A DNA stretch of 36,939 nucleotides, from the UHGV virus genome UHGV-0114473; one strand, given 5' to 3'. Below are positions 25,921 to 33,578 of this stretch, piece after piece. The position numbers and the translations under genes were made by a program. The stretch is from a virus. Below the pieces are notes generated by a model. That model was not told where the DNA came from, searched no databases, and saw nothing but the letters and a program-made list of their open reading frames with translations. The first letter of the stretch is position 1. The number at the start of each line of letters is the position of its first letter.

Positions 25921-28314
25921 TCATACGTCAGCCCCTTGTGCATATCGTCTGCCACGTGCAGCAGGTGCATTTGATGTTGTGCAAATCTGTCTGGCTTCAT
26001 CCTGGTCACATGCAACAAAGTGTCCGTTGCAGAACCGCTGGTAAACCGTACCAAGCGAGCCAAAACGGTTTTTTGTCACAATGATTTCAGCAAATGGCGC
26101 GGCGCTACTGTTCTCGTCATATACCGCTTCCCGATAGAGCATGATGATTGAGTCTGCGTCCTGTTCAATGCTTCCTGAATCACGCAAATCTGCGTTTGTC
26201 GGGCGTTTGTTTGGTCGCTTCTCAACATCGCGCGAAAGCTGACTCAGGGAGATAACAGGCGTTTTCAGGTCTTTCGCCATCGCCTTCAGGCTTCCGGAGA
26301 TGTGAGCAATTGCGAGATCGTTGCGATCTGCTTTAGGCTTCTCAATCAGGCCAAGATAATCCACCATGATGAGTGACAGGTTTGGATTTTCCTGTTTATG
26401 CCGTTCTGCGATTGAGCGTATTTCTTCGACCGATAACCGAGAGGCATCGACTACCCATACATCCAAATCTGCAAGCTGACTCATGCCGTTAGCAACACGC
26501 GCCCAGCCTTCGTCATCCATCGATGCAGGATTTCGCAGTACGCTAACCGACATCCTCCCGGCGTTGGCAATGCTTCGCTCTGCAATCTGCAATGCGCTCA
26601 TTTCCATTGAGAAAATCAATACCCCGCGCCGGACGTCAGAACCAGGAATAACGCGGCTTGCCACGCCTTCGGCAATCTTCAGCGCCAGTTCCGTATTGTG
26701 CGTAACGATGTAATCCGTTGTCACATAGAGATGACTAGGATGGCTTACCATGATGCAGAGACACTCTTCTGGCTCAACAACTTCAACCGATTTGATACCC
26801 ACACCAAGGTTACCAAGCCTGTTAATCCCGAGATTTTTACGTAAACGTGGTGAGTGAATTTGCTCTATCAAAGATGATGGCAACTTCATGCTGACCATGT
26901 GTGCGTCAAGTCCGGCATGCTTCTCTCCTTTGTACGTGTAAACTATTCCCGTCCTGCTGGATTCTTTGGCGGTTCCACCTAAAGATCTAACAAGCCTTAC
27001 TAATCCTTTAGCTAATTTCTGACTTGATGAACTAAAGCGGATGCATCCGGACTTCTCAACCCAGCCATCTGTCTCGAGCAGGCCAGTTAAAACACCGGTA
27101 CGTATTTCTTTGCTAGCACTAAAAATTTCTTCTGGGATTTCCTTCTCGGACGCACCTTTCCCGATCACCCCAATGCCACGTAGTTTGTCCAATAGTGGGT
27201 TCTTCTGGCCTTTTTGGTTACTTATCAAATAATCATTCTCTCCTACCTTAACCAGTCGCAGTGGTGCAATTGCATCACTCATGCGGCTCAGGACATATTC
27301 TTCCGAGTTGGTGAATTTGATGCCTTTTATCAACGAACCGTCACCAAGTAGAGCCCCAATAACCCAACCATCAAGGGGAATATTTTTACCAAAGTCTCCG
27401 GTCAAGGATGGCACTCTTATTCTTCCCTGATAACGTGTTTTTTGTAGCATCCCAGCCAGCGCATCAGTATCAACAACGCGTTTACCAGTAAATCTTGATG
27501 ATGAAATTTCCCATAAGTGGTTGTCGGCACATTTCACGCTACGTCCGTCTTCAAAGGTGACTAAATATGTGAATTTCTTCCCTTGCGGGAAGACGCCAAT
27601 TACCTCCGAAGGAAGCCCGTCTATTGACGCGATGCGATCGCCAATTTTGACTTCTCCGTGAGTAGTCCAGGTGCCATCTGCAAGTAAAATCCCTTCGCTT
27701 AGCGCCATTGCTTTCCCCATACCAGGACGAGCAGCGATTATCACAAGGTCTTCTGCGTTCATCCCTCCGGTGATGGCATCAAGTTCTTCGATTCCGGTCT
27801 TCAGGGTATCTGACTCTTCTCCGTTCCTCAGACGCCTGTCAAGCGTGTCAGTGTAGTCAGTGATGATTTCCCCTAACCGCACCGGTTTAACCTCGTCACG
27901 GGGCTTTCTGATGGCTGAGAGACGCTTTACAAGCTCATCCATCGCCTGACTCGATGCGTCGATGGTTCCGCTCCGAATTGGTTCACGCATTTCATCCATG
28001 ATTTCCAGCACCAGACGGCGGTGATAGTTATCCGCGACCATTCCGGCATATCCCTTCAGGTTTGCGGCACTCGGGCAGTTTTTGCTGGTCATCAGGATTG
28101 ACGTGAAATGCTCCTCTCCGCACTCCTCGGCAACCAGCAGCGCGTCGATTAGGTTTCTGTTTCTCGCCTGCTTGCGGATAACCTCGAAGGCTTTTCTGTA
28201 GAGCGGAATTGAAAACGCTTCCGGCTCAAGCGTTGCCAGAACGTCACTGGCGGTTGGAGTTAATCCACCAATCAGCAAGCCACCGATAACGCTCGCTTCG
28301 ATATCCTGTCTCAT
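25921..28314 (-). CDS. DnaB-like replicative helicase (P22 gene 12 type) interrupted by an intein
   Basis: Exteins total 458 aa (201 + 257), the size of P22 gp12. The Walker A is split as …ARPGMGK[339-aa insert][10 protein letters not shown]…; C-terminal DnaB motifs ([31 protein letters not shown]) are intact. Confidence 0.85.
26695..27711 (-). mobile_element. Intein with LAGLIDADG homing-endonuclease domain inside the helicase P-loop
   Basis: In-frame 339-aa insert between GMGK and T. It ends …YIVTHN before Thr+1 and carries two LAGLIDADG-type motifs ([15 protein letters not shown] and [11 protein letters not shown]). The first residue appears to be Ala. Confidence 0.75.
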
Positions 28315-29132
28315 GCAATCCCCCTGTCTGCAAACTTCCCTTCCCGAACTCCCGTTAACGAATCTTCTCTCAGCAAGTAATCAAAATCAGCCGTCCAGCC
28401 CGTGTCGTTGTCTCCGAAGTAAAACGGCTTGGCCTGATGTACAAACGCCCTGACATACGCTCTGAAACCGTCCACGTTTGGCGTTTTCAGTTGTGGGATG
28501 ATTTTCTTCAGGCGGCGTTTGCGTTTCTCGTTGACCGCAACAGCGTGTGGAAGTCTGTCACCGACTTCGGTGTTGTAGGCGTTCAGGAAGGATTCGTAGT
28601 CGATTCGTTCTGCCTTGCGACGTTCAGGTTTAACCTGCCCATCGCCGCCCCCGTTAGGGGGTAAGGGGGTATTTGTATTTATTGTCTTTTGTATATTGTC
28701 TTTTGTGTTTAGCTGACTTGGCTTATACCCATTAGCCGACTTGGCTAATGTTTTATTAGCTGTTTTAGCTAATGTTAAGCTGTCCTGGCTAATCCACTGC
28801 GAAACCACCTTGTTCACTCCGATTTTCACGCCATCAGCAATGAGGAATTTACGCTCAATAAGCTGGCGCTTGGCAGCGCAAACATGAGTGTGATGAATAC
28901 CTGTCATGGCTGCTATCTGCGTGTTTGTGAGTCGATCCATCGGCTTATTGAATCCGTATGTCTTGCGCATGATAGCGAGCATCACCTTCAACTGCCGGAC
29001 GGTTAAATCAGCCATCAGCAGACTGTCGGTAATCTCGTTAGCAACGCGCATGAAACCATCTTCGGTATCTGCCACGCGATGCTCCACGACCTCCAGTTGA
29101 GGCCTGTAATCAGCTAACTTAACGACGCCCAT
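28311..29132 (-). CDS. O: Replication initiator (lambda O / P22 gp18-like)
   Basis: 273 aa; N-terminal DNA-binding region, low-complexity linker that encodes the iterons, C-terminal domain; directly upstream of the helicase with ATGA overlap. Confidence 0.7.
28644..28800. repeat. Origin of replication: four ~17-bp iterons plus AT-rich region, inside the O gene
   Basis: Direct repeats AGCTGACTTGGCTTATA, AGCCGACTTGGCTAATG, AGCTGTTTTAGCTAATG, AGCTGTCCTGGCTAATC at 20-24 bp spacing (28711..28794), next to the AT-rich run 28671..28710 and the palindrome CCCCCGTTAGGGGG. Confidence 0.6.
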
Positions 29133-29280
29133 GTTTCACTCCTGCTTTGGCTAGTCTGTAAACACCAACAAGGCGCTCTGCGAACGCCCTGTTATTTGCT
29201 GCGGCTACCACTAATCCCTCAGGTGAATCAGGGTGTCGAATCTCTTCTTTTTCCTGGTATTTCTTACGACGTTTTGTCAT
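29119..29280 (-). CDS. Small basic hypothetical protein (53 aa) between cII and O
   Basis: ATG with a GGAG Shine-Dalgarno 6 nt upstream; [53 protein letters not shown]; 3' end overlaps the O start. Confidence 0.4.
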   Translation of the reverse strand: MTKRRKKYQEKEEIRHPDSPEGLVVAAANNRAFAERLVGVYRLAKAGVKHGRR

Positions 29281-29312
29281 AATTACTCCTGTGGATTGAT
29301 CCAGTAATTCCC

Positions 29313-29609
29313 TCAGAATTGCATATCAATTTGCTTAAAATCCTCGGTGGCAGCCGGGGATTTTTTCTTTGTGATTTCATCAAGCGCATACTTAAAAGCC
29401 CTGCTAATCGGACTGATGTCTGATGCCATTCCGAAAGCACACAAGACCGAAGCAATAAACCGCCAGTCCGTTCTGCTTATCTTCGATTCATGACAGCCAA
29501 TCATCTTTGCCAGACCGCGCTGTGTAAGCGTTGACAGGTTGATGAGTAAATCTGTTTCTGCGCGATCAACGTCGCGCTGTGATAGTTTGCTGTAACTTGT
29601 TCGTTCCAT
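29313..29609 (-). CDS. cII: CII-like transcriptional activator
   Basis: 98 aa; C-terminus …KKKSPAATEDFKQIDMQF parallels lambda CII …KKRPAATERSEQIQMEF, with an HTH in the middle; position cro-cII-O. Confidence 0.8.
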   Translation of the reverse strand: MERTSYSKLSQRDVDRAETDLLINLSTLTQRGLAKMIGCHESKISRTDWRFIASVLCAFGMASDISPISRAFKYALDEITKKKSPAATEDFKQIDMQF

Positions 29610-29694
29610 TTCTTAAGATTTCCAATAGTGAATAGTTAGTTGAAAGGTATGCGTGGAAACGCATATGGCCTTAGTTGGTCAGATATCTTGGGAC

Positions 29695-29740
29695 TCGCTT
29701 TTCAGCGACGTAGGACGAATGTCCGTTATTACAAAGAGCG
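29695..29740 (-). promoter_or_regulatory. nutR-like site (boxA + boxB)
   Basis: Minus strand CGCTCTTTGTAA (boxA-like, rc of 29729..29740) followed by TCGCT-GAAAA-AGCGA hairpin (rc of 29695..29708), just downstream of cro. Confidence 0.55.
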
Positions 29741-29750
29741 GCTCCGCTTA

Positions 29751-29966
29751 TTAAGCGGCTTTGTGCTCCGGCGGGAACACGTCATCAAGACTTACTTTTG
29801 CGCCTAACTTGTTTAGACACGCAACAAGAGCACGGCATGTTTTAAGGTCTGGGAAGCGACGACCAGATTCCCAATGTCCGATAGCTCCCTGTGTGCATCC
29901 AACTGCCTTAGCAAGTGTTGTTTGAGAGATATTCAGTGACTCTCGATATTTTCGTAGGTTGCTCAT
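29751..29966 (-). CDS. cro: Cro-like HTH repressor
   Basis: 71 aa; SQTTLAKAVGCTQGAIGHWESGRRFP HTH; divergent from cI across the operator region. Confidence 0.75.
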   Translation of the reverse strand: MSNLRKYRESLNISQTTLAKAVGCTQGAIGHWESGRRFPDLKTCRALVACLNKLGAKVSLDDVFPPEHKAA

Positions 29967-29990
29967 ATGCCCTCCATAGTAACCACGAAT

Positions 29991-30076
29991 AAAAAATACA
30001 ATATGTACTTCTCAAATACAAGTAAAAATACACATTGTGCATGGATGGTTCCAGTACAGAGCGTAATAATAAGGAC
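29991..30076. promoter_or_regulatory. OR operator/promoter region (PR/PRM)
   Basis: TACAA/TTGTA-containing palindromes (ATACAATATGTACT; TACAAGTAAAAATACACATTGTG) between divergent cro and cI. The AGTACATAT(T/C)GTA motif recurs at OL. Confidence 0.5.
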
Positions 30077-30082
30077 ATGAAA

Positions 30083-30736
30083 ATGAAATGGTATGAACTG
30101 GCTAGATCCAGAATGAAAGAGCTCGGCATAACTCAAGAGAAGTTAGCCGAAGAGCTAGGTATGACGCAGGGTGGAATTGGACACTGGTTGCGCGGATCTC
30201 GTCATCCATCTCTTAGTGATATTGGTGTGGTGTTTAAATACCTTGGTATTGATAACATATCATTCAACCACGACGGGACATTTTCACCTGTTGGCGAATA
30301 CTCATCGGCCCCAGTTAAAAAACAATATGAGTACCCTGTTTTTTCTCATGTTCAGGCTGGGATGTTCTCTCCAGAACTCAGAACCTTTACCAAAGGTGAT
30401 GCGGAGAGATTGGTAAGCACAACCAAAAAAGCCAGTGACTCTGCATTCTGGCTTGAGGTTGAAGGTAACTCAATGACCGCACCAACAGGTTCCAAACCTA
30501 GTTTTCCTGACGGGATGTTAATTCTGGTTGACCCTGAGCAAGCTGTTGAGCCCGGCGATTTCTGCATAGCCAGACTTGGTGGTGATGAATTTACCTTCAA
30601 GAAACTGATCAGGGATAGCGGTCAGGTGTTTCTACAACCACTAAACCCGCAATATCCAATGATCCCATGCAATGAGAGTTGTTCCGTTGTGGGGAAAGTT
30701 ATCGCCAGCCAATGGCCTGAAGAGACGTTTGGGTAA
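30083..30736 (+). CDS. cI: CI-type prophage repressor (HTH plus S24 LexA-like peptidase domain), P22 C2-like
   Basis: [23 protein letters not shown]; C-terminal …[32 protein letters not shown]…[25 protein letters not shown] matches the P22 C2 autocleavage domain. Start chosen at the ATG with AAGGA spacing; ORF track begins at 30035. Confidence 0.8.
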
Positions 30737-30745
30737 AGAGGATAG

Positions 30746-30999
30746 ATGGAGTTTAATGGCCATGAGTATCAAGCGGTCAAAAAGAAGTTCATCTATTCAT
30801 TGAAAGCATAAGGCCATCTGAGTATATCCGTAATGATCTGGATATTGTCTATAACATCAATGACCGGACGATAGATATCGGTGAGCAGCGTCCTGTATGG
30901 CAGGGTGAGGCAGGTGAAAAAACGTCCTGCCATCAACAAGAATCAAGTGCATCCGCTCTCTGGACAGATGGAAAATTTATTGGATGCAAAAAGATATGA
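30746..30999 (+). pseudogene. Possible frameshifted remnant ORF immediately downstream of cI
   Basis: 21-aa ORF with Shine-Dalgarno (MEFNGHEYQAVKKKFIYSLKA*) followed in a different frame by a 61-codon open stretch with no start (PSEYIRNDLDIVYNINDRTIDIGEQRPVWQGEAGEKT…). Confidence 0.3.
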
Positions 31000-31100
31000 A
31001 ATAACACCTGTATAGCACGGAGCTTTCTCTGACCGATGCACTTGAAGTTGTTAGGGCTGACCCAGCCTGCTGTTTCTTTAGGTAAGAGAAAAGAGATTTA

Positions 31101-31127
31101 GGAGATGAAAGGTCGCAGAGGTGCGGC
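31101..31127 (+). terminator. Rho-independent terminator ending the cI transcript
   Basis: GGTCGCA-GAGG-TGCGGCC (one G·U pair) followed by TTTTTTATT. Confidence 0.5.
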
Positions 31128-31163
31128 CTTTTTTATTGAGAGTGGATCTTGAACGGAAATTCT

Positions 31164-31205
31164 CAAGACTTGAGTCTTGCATGCAAATCAATTCCTGGAT
31201 AAACT
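31164..31205 (+). promoter_or_regulatory. Candidate sigma70 promoter with overlapping palindromic operators for the rex-position gene
   Basis: TTGCAT (31177..31182), 17 bp, TAAACT (31200..31205). Perfect inverted repeat CAAGACT-TG-AGTCTTG (31164..31179) and palindrome TTGCATGCAA (31177..31186) overlap the -35. Confidence 0.45.
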
Positions 31206-31237
31206 CGATCTGAGTCAATAACTTAGAGAGAGAGCAA

Positions 31238-31759
31238 ATGGCAAAGTCAAACGTTAGCGTGCAGGCATTCAAGGACTTCCTTGAAGAGCTTATGTCGCTG
31301 AACATAATGAAGGAGGCCACCGCTCGAAATTTAAAAAACTCATCCGCTCGCCTCTTAACGGTAGTCCAAGAAGAGGAAATGGGTGATGTTACTCAGCTTG
31401 ATGTGAATGAGCTTGCCGAGCGATACATCAACGCAACTGAGCCGAAGCCTAGCGACAGCAGCATTACTGCATATAAAAGCCGCATGGAAAGTGCAATCAA
31501 AAAGTTTGTAGCTTTCCAGTCTGGTGAAGAAATCCCATACACTCCGATTGACAAAGAATCCAGTGAGGAAAAAGATTTGACTGGCGAACCAACAAAAGTC
31601 GAAGGCAAGGCTAATGCACTTCATACCTATGATCTTCCAGTAGTTCTTCGACCTGAATCAGGGGTTACAGTAACGATTAAAGGCATTCCTAACGATATCA
31701 CAAACGAAGAAGCCGAACGCATCTCTTCAATTCTGAAGGTTTACGTTCGGCCTCAATAA
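31238..31759 (+). CDS. Hypothetical 173-aa hydrophilic protein in the rexAB-equivalent slot
   Basis: Clean ORF between the cI terminator and OL/PL, same orientation as cI; acidic, Ser/Glu-rich middle, no TM segment. No family recognised. Confidence 0.55.
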   Translation: MAKSNVSVQAFKDFLEELMSLNIMKEATARNLKNSSARLLTVVQEEEMGDVTQLDVNELAERYINATEPKPSDSSITAYKSRMESAIKKFVAFQSGEEIPYTPIDKESSEEKDLTGEPTKVEGKANALHTYDLPVVLRPESGVTVTIKGIPNDITNEEAERISSILKVYVRPQ

Positions 31760-32226
31760 TGCAAAAGCATTCAGCACAATGTCCAACTCCCCAGTCCGAC
31801 ATTGATGCTGTTTAACCAGAGCCTCCAAAAGGAGCCCTTGTTAAGGTACACAATATTTGCGATGTAACCTTAGCGCGTCTGGTACATTTTTTCAAGCGGT
31901 TGTAGGGCTGCCGCCAATATGAGAAAACACAGATGTCTACATACAATTTGAATGACCAATTCGATCGAGAAGTTCATGTGAATGCCTATGAACGGATAAG
32001 GCATGGAAATCTTGAACATGTGTGTGAGCATTATCGCTCAAGGCCACACCGCTAATCATCAACCCGGCCTCCATGCCGGGTTTTCTTTTCCTCTCGCCCC
32101 AAAAAAACACATAACCAATTGTATTTATTGGAAAATAAATAGATACAACTCACTAAACAACGCAATTCTGATCTCTCCTTACATCGCCGAGGCAATACAC
32201 CCACGCTAAAAAACAATACTATTAAA

Positions 32227-32299
32227 TACAAAGCGTTGTAAAAAACCGCCCCGTTTTAGAACAAATTGTATTGACCAAGTGGAGTACATATCGTACTAT
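32227..32299 (+). promoter_or_regulatory. OL/PL: leftward early promoter with operator palindromes
   Basis: TTGACC (32271..32276), 17 bp, TACTAT (32294..32299). Palindromes TACAAAGCGTTGTA, ACAAATTGT and AGTACATATCGTACT share half-sites with OR. Confidence 0.55.
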
Positions 32300-32345
32300 T
32301 TAACCATCAGCAGGACGCTGGAAGCCAAATGGAACAGACTGGCAG

Positions 32346-32390
32346 GCTCTTTAAACAACGTCGACTCTCGACTACGTGGCTGAAAAGCCA
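32346..32390 (+). promoter_or_regulatory. nutL (boxA GCTCTTTAA + boxB hairpin)
   Basis: boxA-like GCTCTTTAAACAA (32346..) and boxB TGGCT-GAAAA-AGCCA (32377..32390) between PL and N; lambda-type GAAAA loop. Confidence 0.6.
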
Positions 32391-32488
32391 GATCACCCAA
32401 CCACATAAGCTGTGGGATGCAATGCCGAAGCAACCGTCTCAGGAGGAGCTTCGAGATTGCATCGCCAAAGTTTATTCGGGAGGAATCT

Positions 32489-32761
32489 ATGTCCAGAAAA
32501 ACAGAATTTAAAGGCACCGCAGCTTCTCGCCGTAGAGCTCGTCGCGCAAACCTGCAAAGTCAGGAGGCGATTAGCTCCGACAAACTACACAGGCCAACCC
32601 CATCACGAGTGGTCTTACAATGCAAACGCAAACCAGCAATGAGAGCAGAAGTAATAACACTGACAACGTTGACCAGAAAATATGAAGGCTCAACTTGTCT
32701 TCCAAATGTAGCTCTTTACGCGGCAGGCTACCGTAAATCCAAACAACTGACAGCAAGATGA
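32489..32761 (+). CDS. N: N-type antiterminator (P22 gene 24-like)
   Basis: Arg-rich motif MSRKTEFKGTAASRRRARRANLQ at the N-terminus; C-terminus …LPNVALYAAGYRKSKQLTAR resembles P22 gp24. GGGAGGA Shine-Dalgarno; first gene after nutL. Confidence 0.75.
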   Translation: MSRKTEFKGTAASRRRARRANLQSQEAISSDKLHRPTPSRVVLQCKRKPAMRAEVITLTTLTRKYEGSTCLPNVALYAAGYRKSKQLTAR

Positions 32762-32889
32762 CTTGTGTTGGTCGCCAGAAAATGAAATTAGGCAGCAAAC
32801 CACTTATTTGAGGTGATATATGGAAGAAGAATTTGAAGAGTTCGAAGAGCATCCTCAGGATGTGATGGAACAATACCAGGACTACCCTT

Positions 32890-33090
32890 ATGACTACGAC
32901 TATTGATAAGAATCAATGGTGTGGACAATTCAAGCGATGCAATGGATGCAAGCTGCAATCGGAATGCATGGTTAAGCCTGAAGAAATGTTTCCTGTAATG
33001 GAAGATGGGAAATATGTCGATAAATGGGCAATACGAACGACGGCAATGATTGCCAGAGAACTTGGTAAACAGAACAACAAGGCTGCCTGA
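32890..33090 (+). CDS. ral: Ral-like small protein (putative restriction alleviation)
   Basis: 66 aa, the same size and position (just after N) as lambda Ral; Cys cluster CGQFKRCNGCKLQSEC. Identity is from memory and unverified. Confidence 0.5.
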   Translation: MTTTIDKNQWCGQFKRCNGCKLQSECMVKPEEMFPVMEDGKYVDKWAIRTTAMIARELGKQNNKAA

Positions 33091-33117
33091 TGGTGGCCTT
33101 TATTTTTAAGGAGCTAT

Positions 33118-33360
33118 ATGAAAATTAAAACTATGGCAGCAAGCCCATTAAGCGGTCGTATTTTTCAAGGAACATTAAACACTGAAAAAGGAATGTGGGT
33201 AGGAAAGAAAGAAGATGTCACCGAACAAGCGATTAAGGCAGTAACTGAACACCTGATGATAAAAGACCGGAAATATGCATACGAAACGAATGATGGCAAA
33301 TGGGTGATAATAATGCATCAACTGGTTGATGAATTACCAGAAGAGTTTATTGCTGATTAA
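33118..33360 (+). CDS. Hypothetical early protein (80 aa)
   Basis: ORF in the PL operon between the Ral-like gene and cIII; no recognised motif. Confidence 0.45.
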   Translation: MKIKTMAASPLSGRIFQGTLNTEKGMWVGKKEDVTEQAIKAVTEHLMIKDRKYAYETNDGKWVIIMHQLVDELPEEFIAD

Positions 33361-33578
33361 AATTATTTTGGCATAAACAACAGAATAAACACTGCACTGT
33401 GTATTCATTCCAACGAGTGAATACACGGAGCAATGTCGCTCGTAACTAAACAGGAGCCGACTTGTTCTGATTATTGGAAATCTTCTTTGCCCTCCAGTGT
33501 GAGGGCCTTTTTATATGCATACCAATAACGCTTCACTTGAGGCGTTTTCGTTATGCAATCAAACAGAAGGAGCATCCT

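Follow-up and report, generated by a model that had tools for sequence, protein, structure and literature searches.

A gene with its own candidate promoter between cI and OL/PL of a Shiga-toxin-converting lambdoid phage encodes a small protein with a predicted recombinase-type core-binding domain

What does a solitary gene do that sits in the immunity region of a Shiga-toxin-converting phage and carries its own transcription signals? Virus genome UHGV-0114473, a stretch of 36,939 nucleotides (the window), contains such a gene, ECs1184, between cI and the OL/PL region. Over positions 30000 to 32400 the window shares 99.9% identity with several Shiga-toxin-converting E. coli O157:H7 phages in their immunity region (Stx1 converting phage (AP005153), Stx2 II, 1717, 2851 and the PA series). 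The gene lies on the same strand as cI, downstream of it and upstream of OL/PL and N. An earlier note, made from the DNA letters alone, had placed it in the slot that rexAB occupies in lambda and had proposed a lysogen-expressed defense or exclusion factor. The map bears out the position. Regarding function, we tentatively favor another reading, which we hold to be possible rather than probable: the gene forms a self-transcribed cargo cassette for a non-catalytic, nucleic-acid-binding regulator that would be made in the lysogen and would aid the stability of the prophage.

Organization and autonomy of the cassette

Terminator, promoter, coding sequence and terminator, i.e. all elements of a cassette, are present (Table 1). 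Among the characteristics of a 'moron' we found a predicted promoter and terminator of its own as well as presence or absence of the gene between the same flanks in related phages. The gene had been described as autonomous in the earlier note, and several observations agree with this. The geometry of its promoter is conserved (see below). In E. coli 95NR1 a 100% identical gene adjoins a cI that is only 19% identical, and in Yersinia a gene of 73% identity stands beside an unrelated cI; the gene thus moves independently of the repressor. In some O157 strains the insertion sequence (IS) element IS1203 stands at the foot of the terminator hairpin; in strain 9234 it has inserted at 31110-31113, between the DUF3024 pseudogene described below and the hairpin. 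It separates the ECs1184 gene from cI and leaves hairpin, promoter and gene intact.

The predicted expression in lysogens is also supported by published data. In an RNA-interactome study (PMC7618764), native ECs1184 was quantified by mass spectrometry in uninduced cultures of strain Sakai, and the protein is therefore made in lysogens. The same study gave a false discovery rate of 0.065 for its enrichment by TRAPP (purification of proteins associated with total RNA), and a polynucleotide kinase (PNK) labelling assay revealed no strong RNA binding.

Promoter region

The candidate promoter, TTGCAT and TAAACT separated by 17 nucleotides, agrees with the consensus at 7 of 12 positions and was not listed by the promoter scanner. 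The hexamers named in the earlier note are present all the same, and their geometry is conserved. We compared homologous loci from Salmonella phage Oslo, Proteus/Providencia/Morganella, Cronobacter, Yersinia, Serratia, metagenomes and IMG/VR. At the equivalent place these relatives have -35 hexamers TTGCAA, TTGCGC, TTGCTT, TTGACT or TTGATC and -10 hexamers TAGAAT, TAAACT or TAGACT, with a spacer of 17-18 nucleotides and a distance of 25-32 nucleotides from the -10 hexamer to the ATG. This arrangement is kept over clades of 35-100% protein identity, including homologues beside unrelated cI genes, and in several relatives the -10 hexamer is nearer to the consensus than in the window. Because position and spacer are conserved and because the IS1203 insertion spares this region, a weak sigma-70 promoter belonging to the ECs1184 gene is credible in spite of the modest match. 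At the Shine-Dalgarno-like tract the block ACTTAGAGAGA is kept across the close clade. A hairpin in the 5'-untranslated region found no support from the relatives.

Five relatives (L003, L007, L013, L015 and L164) contain an extra 65-80 nucleotides between hairpin and promoter, which the window does not have. A LexA-box-like motif, CTG-N10-CAG, lies within them; L013, L015 and L164 have in addition a second terminator hairpin (AACCCTC-NNNN-GAGGGTT with seven T behind it). These features are a hint that an SOS-controlled element precedes the gene in the five loci.

Next to the -35 hexamer lies an inverted repeat, CAAGACTTGAGTCTTG. It is not the perfect 16-bp palindrome that it had been taken for, since its two 7-nucleotide arms enclose a non-complementary TG. 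The window has 22 inverted repeats of such quality where about 11 are expected, so that the repeat on its own is at chance level. It becomes a candidate operator because it is conserved next to the -35 hexamer in relatives: the close clade keeps AAGACT-N(1,2,4)-AGTCTT at this place, and the metagenomic relative L017 has the repeat as a perfect 16-mer and once more over the -10 hexamer. The position and the conservation fit an operator. A role as an RNA hairpin was ruled out (z score -0.19). Binding of CI at the promoter is unlikely, as the repeat does not resemble the annotated operators and the cassette is also found with unrelated cI genes. A second palindrome to which the earlier note had drawn attention, TTGCATGCAA, can be dismissed as a regulatory element. 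It is a perfect 10-mer of a kind that occurs 20 times in the window against about 36 expected, and it is conserved in no relative.

The promoters of the family are rich in GATC. In 31 promoter zones of 90 nucleotides we counted 49 sites, where 8.3 are expected from the density in the loci and 20 from dinucleotide shuffles, an approximately six-fold enrichment; the loci are phylogenetically related, so that these counts overstate independence. In the relatives (L177-L204 and others) the sites are placed in the -35 hexamer (TTGATC) or just before or just after the -10 hexamer, and the pattern recurs in most of the sequence-identity groups that can be distinguished by eye among the gammaproteobacterial loci. 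The promoter in the window has two GATC sites, neither of them inside a hexamer. The clustering points to Dam methylation or SeqA as a means of control, or to a protein-binding site that contains GATC.

Upstream hairpin and cargo site

The 500 nucleotides between cI and the gene, which had been regarded as an empty spacer, hold a DUF3024 pseudogene. Owing to two frameshifts and one internal stop its translation is distributed over three frames; tblastn aligns it with the intact DUF3024 of phage SH2026Stx1 at 81-85% identity (E = 6e-44). Intact DUF3024 genes are found in E. coli 95NR1, phage SH2026Stx1 and Morganellaceae prophages, where they are the second gene of the cI operon. The hairpin behind the pseudogene therefore ends a cI-DUF3024 unit. 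The earlier note had recognized this terminator correctly and had assigned it to the cI transcript.

The hairpin has a predicted free energy (dG) of -16 kcal/mol (z score -4.5), and none of 200 shuffled sequences was equally stable. Its core stem, GGTCGCA/TGCGGCC with a conserved U.G pair, closes a GAGG loop and is followed by six T. It is nearly base-for-base identical in E. coli, Salmonella, Proteus, Serratia and Cronobacter. The hairpin sequence AGGTCGCAGARRTGCGGCCTT was found in 115 viral contigs with 66 distinct downstream contexts, some of which are regions of structural genes. A cI and/or DUF3024 gene precedes the hairpin in about half of the contigs. The ECs1184 gene follows it in only 28 of the 115, and operators or other cargo follow in 87. 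For this reason we assign the hairpin to the upstream unit and not to the cassette; judged by its distribution, it is a portable terminator or module boundary. Its occurrence in so many contexts also rules out that it is part of the cassette or a small RNA (sRNA). An Rfam scan of positions 29000-33500 (E up to 1) detected no relevant known sRNA in the gap between cI and the gene.

In other phages the hairpin is followed directly by OL-like operators or by unrelated cargo genes, whose products are ParA-like, Bro-N-like, DUF4065-like or a helix-turn-helix (HTH) protein plus an M78 peptidase. Contig L047 has an ECs1184-family member of about 30% identity in the same slot behind the same hairpin. 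The site is thus a cargo hotspot, and the argument from the slot in the earlier note gains support from this.

Protein family and domain structure

ECs1184 is acidic and hydrophilic, as had been noted (isoelectric point (pI) 4.85, grand average of hydropathy (GRAVY) -0.48). The claim that it has no homologues did not hold. The protein matches the profile phrog_2602 (function unknown) over residues 1-173 of 173 with E = 3.5e-102, and the gene was found in 235 of 5,426 complete E. coli genomes. When 1.84 billion cluster representatives were searched with a profile (E up to 1e-3), at least 656 of them fell into the family. Among the 150 matches listed, all proteins are approximately 110-240 residues long and nearly all match almost the whole profile. 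A profile scan of the genome contigs returned a single locus.

Members of the family have in common a conserved N-terminal domain of about 100 residues, marked by the motifs TARNLKNS and YKSR, then a linker that varies and, at the C terminus, a conserved block whose consensus is PIPLR..V.I..LP.DLT..EAERI. In ECs1184 these parts correspond to a predicted recombinase core-binding (SAM-like) domain (residues 1-100), an acidic disordered linker (residues 101-128) and a beta-beta-alpha domain (residues 129-173). The AlphaFold model of the N-terminal domain comprises four helices with a predicted local distance difference test (pLDDT) score of about 90; the C-terminal domain modeled alone forms a beta-hairpin plus a helix with a pLDDT of 93. 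Searches with 43 diverse members gave 13 weak matches to Phage_int_SAM families, the best with E = 3.6e-4. From model and profiles together, the N-terminal half is recognizable as a core-binding domain of the tyrosine-recombinase type. No match to a catalytic domain (PF00589, active site R-K-H-R-H/W-Y) was obtained, and only the 45-residue beta-beta-alpha domain follows the linker. ECs1184 is therefore not a recombinase. No support came for ECs1184 as a decoy version of the integrase that the phage itself encodes (hhalign probability 2-3% for Sp5 Int and the YP3 integrase).

No family in Pfam, NCBIfam or PADLOC passed its threshold for ECs1184. In structure and profile comparisons of the 173-residue protein, of the kind that the earlier note had suggested, Foldseek against viral structures gave nothing significant, nor did PDB sequence profiles for the whole protein and for the C-terminal domain. 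For the latter domain no recognizable relative was found, and a search for fusion partners returned only small proteins of 44-70 residues in phage early operons which consist of this domain alone.

The family has no conserved partner gene and is solitary in every context examined; small open reading frames (ORFs) downstream of it are mutually unrelated between loci. In the window an ORF of 40 codons with the motif V.V..Y.RIR.G.LEHV..H.RS.P comes after the gene and ahead of the cassette terminator; it encodes a hydrophilic product. This ORF is probably co-transcribed with ECs1184. A role as conserved partner or toxin was ruled out, as it occurs in three lineages only (also in phages Oslo and SH2026Stx1). 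Distant homologues of ECs1184 are located by a type I restriction-modification (R-M) system with a pair of HTH protein and M78 peptidase, by MazEF, by IS elements or in a rac-like prophage. The homologue in Yersinia phage YP3 stands immediately behind xis and the gene of a 430-residue protein, probably an integrase. Most homologues are not adjacent to integrases.

Published phenotype and natural loss

In the study of Mondal et al. (PMC5155283), sacB allelic exchange in MG1655(Sp5) served to delete, in frame, nearly all Sp5 genes whose function is unknown. Deletion failed only for ORF21 (ECs1180) and ORF23 (ECs1184). The authors concluded that both are probably required for stable lysogeny and reported no conserved domain in either. 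Both ORFs flank PL-N.

The strain NE92 is viable without the gene. The gene was lost there by recombination between two IS copies, and the resulting deletion also took OL/PL, N, ORF21, cIII, kil and part of gam; cI and cro were retained. This co-deletion is compatible with a requirement exerted via the PL operon; as natural variation it is informative and not decisive. The searchable literature holds no report of a phage-resistance phenotype for ECs1184, and a search on neighboring locus tags and stand-alone SAM-like proteins gave nothing specific to this gene.

Proposed role and alternatives

Based on these results we propose the following course of events. The cassette would have been inserted as a moron between the terminator of the cI(-DUF3024) operon and OL/PL. 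Its own promoter would transcribe ECs1184, probably together with the 40-residue ORF, and transcription would stop at the second terminator before OL. The product would be a soluble two-domain protein in which a core-binding domain that lost or never had its catalytic domain is joined by the linker to the beta-beta-alpha domain, and it would act in the lysogen as a non-catalytic regulator that binds DNA or another nucleic acid. The protein would probably repress its own promoter via the AAGACT/AGTCTT inverted repeat at the -35 hexamer, and the GATC sites could possibly couple expression to the state of Dam methylation. The effect would be to keep the prophage quiet or stable and not to kill the infected cell. 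In one version of this scheme, loss of self-repression would let transcription run past the cassette terminator into N-kil. Such read-through would account for the deletion that failed as well as for the survival of the strain with the larger co-deletion. A more far-reaching version casts ECs1184 as founding member of a whole family of core-binding proteins devoid of the catalytic domain, which mobile elements would employ as a second, CI-independent safeguard of lysogeny. A Dam-gated, self-repressing promoter would hold the DNA-binding protein at a fixed level, and its removal would unleash the PL operon or excision and thereby kill or induce the Shiga-toxin lysogen. We regard this extended version as speculative and quite improbable.

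Several points weigh against the proposed regulator. The N-terminal domain is acidic in this clade (pI 4.85, net charge -4.5), which is unusual for a DNA binder, although distant members of the family have a pI of 9-10, and the isolated core-binding domain of lambda Int binds DNA weakly. The inverted repeat has no second copy in the 36.9-kb window, so that the only visible target is the gene itself. Self-repression in particular we can only infer, because inverted repeats are not statistically enriched across the promoters of the family, the changes in the repeat between relatives are one-sided and not compensated, and the TARNLKNS motif is unchanged between clades whose promoter palindromes differ. 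The last observation speaks against the TARNLKNS helix as the reader of a clade-specific operator. The failed deletion may also be technical: as ORF21 and ORF23 flank PL-N, PL and/or N would have been part of the deletion constructs.

The function suggested in the earlier note, anti-phage defense or superinfection exclusion by a small protein that hinders incoming phage DNA or a phage protein, has several points in its favor. The cassette occupies the rexAB-equivalent cargo hotspot, appears to be transcribed independently of cI, moves among phages of differing immunity types and has its protein present in uninduced cells; in addition, the distant homologues stand alone in mobile or defense-island-like settings. 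However, no PADLOC-DB 2.0 model, including that of RexAB, matched at E up to 1. The protein lacks enzymatic, membrane and sensor domains, its gene is without a conserved partner, and the one domain that can be recognized is the DNA-binding module of a recombinase. A failed deletion would be unexpected for a dispensable exclusion gene such as rexAB, and the lack of a resistance phenotype in the searchable literature also counts against defense. We consider this function rather unlikely.

The promoters and the fold lend themselves to yet another explanation, in which the promoter fires on unmethylated or hemimethylated DNA, that is after entry or after passage of a replication fork, and the protein transiently helps or restrains integration or excision. 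GATC sites in the -35 hexamer or flanking the -10 hexamer in nearly all gammaproteobacterial clades, the fold of an integrase core-binding domain and the YP3 homologue right behind xis and a probable integrase would be in line with such a factor, and a Dam-dependent prophage integrase promoter provides a precedent (PMC12455584). Yet the GATC sites of the window stand outside the hexamers, GATC could simply be part of a protein-binding site, there is no specific similarity to the integrases of Sp5 and YP3, and most homologues lie away from integrases. All in all an establishment-phase or replication-coupled factor is unlikely. Even less likely, in our judgment, is an antitoxin-like or addiction component that neutralizes a toxic phage product, either the 40-residue ORF or Kil, and whose loss kills the lysogen. 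The gene could not be deleted in the lysogen, the sole natural loss seen, in NE92, also removes the PL-kil region, and the combination of a DNA-binding domain at the N terminus with a small one at the C terminus and with a palindrome at the gene's own promoter resembles the layout of a type II antitoxin. The palindrome is a candidate repeat in the close clade and in L017, with no enrichment of inverted repeats across the family. Against an antitoxin stand the lack of a conserved adjacent toxin (the hydrophilic 40-residue ORF is confined to its three lineages), the solitary occurrence of the family and the absence of a match to PADLOC or to a toxin-antitoxin family in Pfam.

Comparison with known systems

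Tyrosine recombinases (lambda Int, XerD, IntI; Phage_int_SAM_1/3/4/5/6) have an N-terminal core-binding domain that matches that of ECs1184. In contrast to them, ECs1184 has neither a catalytic nor an arm-binding domain, ends at residue 173 with a different C-terminal domain and carries an acidic core-binding domain in this clade, and its gene is not located at an end of the prophage.

The regulators MrpR/YopR and SroF are master repressors of their phages and keep the whole two-domain recombinase fold. The logic proposed here is similar to that of these SPbeta-like Bacillus phage proteins (MrpR/YopR, PDB-entry 8a0a; phi3T SroF, PDB-entry 9rd5), in the sense of a functional analogy only. ECs1184 has just the core-binding domain, shows no detectable sequence relationship to them and belongs to a phage with a classical CI.

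The likeness to rexA-rexB of lambda, with its internal rexB promoter, and to other cargo genes of the cI-PL slot concerns map position, orientation to cI, expression in the lysogen, a terminator before OL and partial transcriptional independence from PRM. The genes are unrelated, however. Where RexAB pairs a sensor with a membrane channel, ECs1184 consists of one soluble protein; it has been reported as undeletable and it has no known exclusion phenotype.

With Dam-controlled promoters of mobile elements (IS10 transposase pIN, P22 gtr, Salmonella intA) the ECs1184 family shares GATC sites in or next to the core hexamers; for a prophage recombination gene such control has been described (PMC12455584). 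The window differs in that its GATC sites are found only between the -10 hexamer and the start and 30 nucleotides upstream of the -35 hexamer.

Layout of the locus and neighboring genes

The features of the locus are compiled in Table 1. The terminator that closes the cassette has a predicted dG of -14.3 kcal/mol (z score -3.8). Base composition does not mark the cassette as foreign, the G+C content being 0.43-0.445 over cassette and flanks.

Table 1. Features of the cI-N region of the window.
Feature	Position	Strand	Remarks
cro	29751-29966	minus	
cI	30083-30736	plus	HTH and Peptidase_S24 domains
DUF3024 pseudogene	30747-31086	plus	decayed second gene of the cI operon; fills the supposed spacer between cI and the gene
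Intrinsic terminator hairpin	31107-31134	plus	hairpin and T-run; ends the immunity operon
Dam site GATC	31145-31148		second site, 30 nucleotides upstream of -35
Inverted repeat CAAGACT-TG-AGTCTTG (CAAGACTTGAGTCTTG)	31164-31179		imperfect; abuts/overlaps -35; candidate operator
-35 hexamer TTGCAT (candidate)	31177-31182	plus	
-10 hexamer TAAACT (candidate)	31200-31205	plus	17 nucleotides past -35
Dam site GATC	31207-31210		between -10 and predicted transcription start (TAAACT-C-GATC)
Purine-rich Shine-Dalgarno-like tract AGAGAGAGAG	31225-31234	plus	read from sequence
Coding sequence ECs1184 / Sp5 ORF23 / VT2-Sap23 / ORF b63	31238-31759	plus	173 amino acids
Small ORF, 40 amino acids (phrog_21154)	31933-32055	plus	E = 5e-8
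Intrinsic terminator closing the cassette before OL	32061-32092	plus	8 pairs, 6 of them G-C; T-run
OL operators	~32223-32297	plus	AP005153 annotation mapped onto the window
PL TTGACC-17-TACTAT	32271-32299	plus	promoter scanner
N	32417-32761	plus	

Right after the stop codon of ECs1184, the RNA of positions 31760-31860 folds into two stable hairpins (dG -28.2 kcal/mol, z score -4.0) that are not followed by a T-run. This structure may stabilize the 3' end or terminate transcription weakly. Downstream of N the window encodes the antirestriction protein Ral (32890-33090; Pfam E = 1.6e-48) and a DUF7446 protein (33118-33360); in Sp5, ORF21 (ECs1180), the other ORF reported as undeletable, is located in this N-proximal region. 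On the minus strand at 25921-28314 lies the gene of a DnaB-type replicative helicase of 797 residues, in which an intein with a LAGLIDADG homing endonuclease interrupts the P-loop (GMGK | A...HN | T).

Significance

Earlier work had already recorded the gene and the failure to delete it, and both slot and cassette follow a classical logic. Four points are new: a fold assignment in which a stand-alone recombinase core-binding domain, as predicted by the model, is linked with a beta-beta-alpha domain of a novel kind; a family that is large and of uniform architecture; a portable terminator that can be told apart from the cassette; and promoters rich in GATC. A deletion-resistant gene that had no domain assignment until now is thereby placed in a very large, unstudied family. 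The cassette lies in the control region of the major Stx2a phage type in E. coli O157:H7, to which Sp5 and its relatives belong, and in the O157:H7 strains that carry these phages it is the stability of the prophage that sets the toxin output. If ECs1184 is a defense gene, it would be a new single-gene system of unusual architecture. If instead it stabilizes lysogeny or gates PL, it would offer a new lever on the induction of Stx phages and a new case of recombinase parts being reused as regulators.

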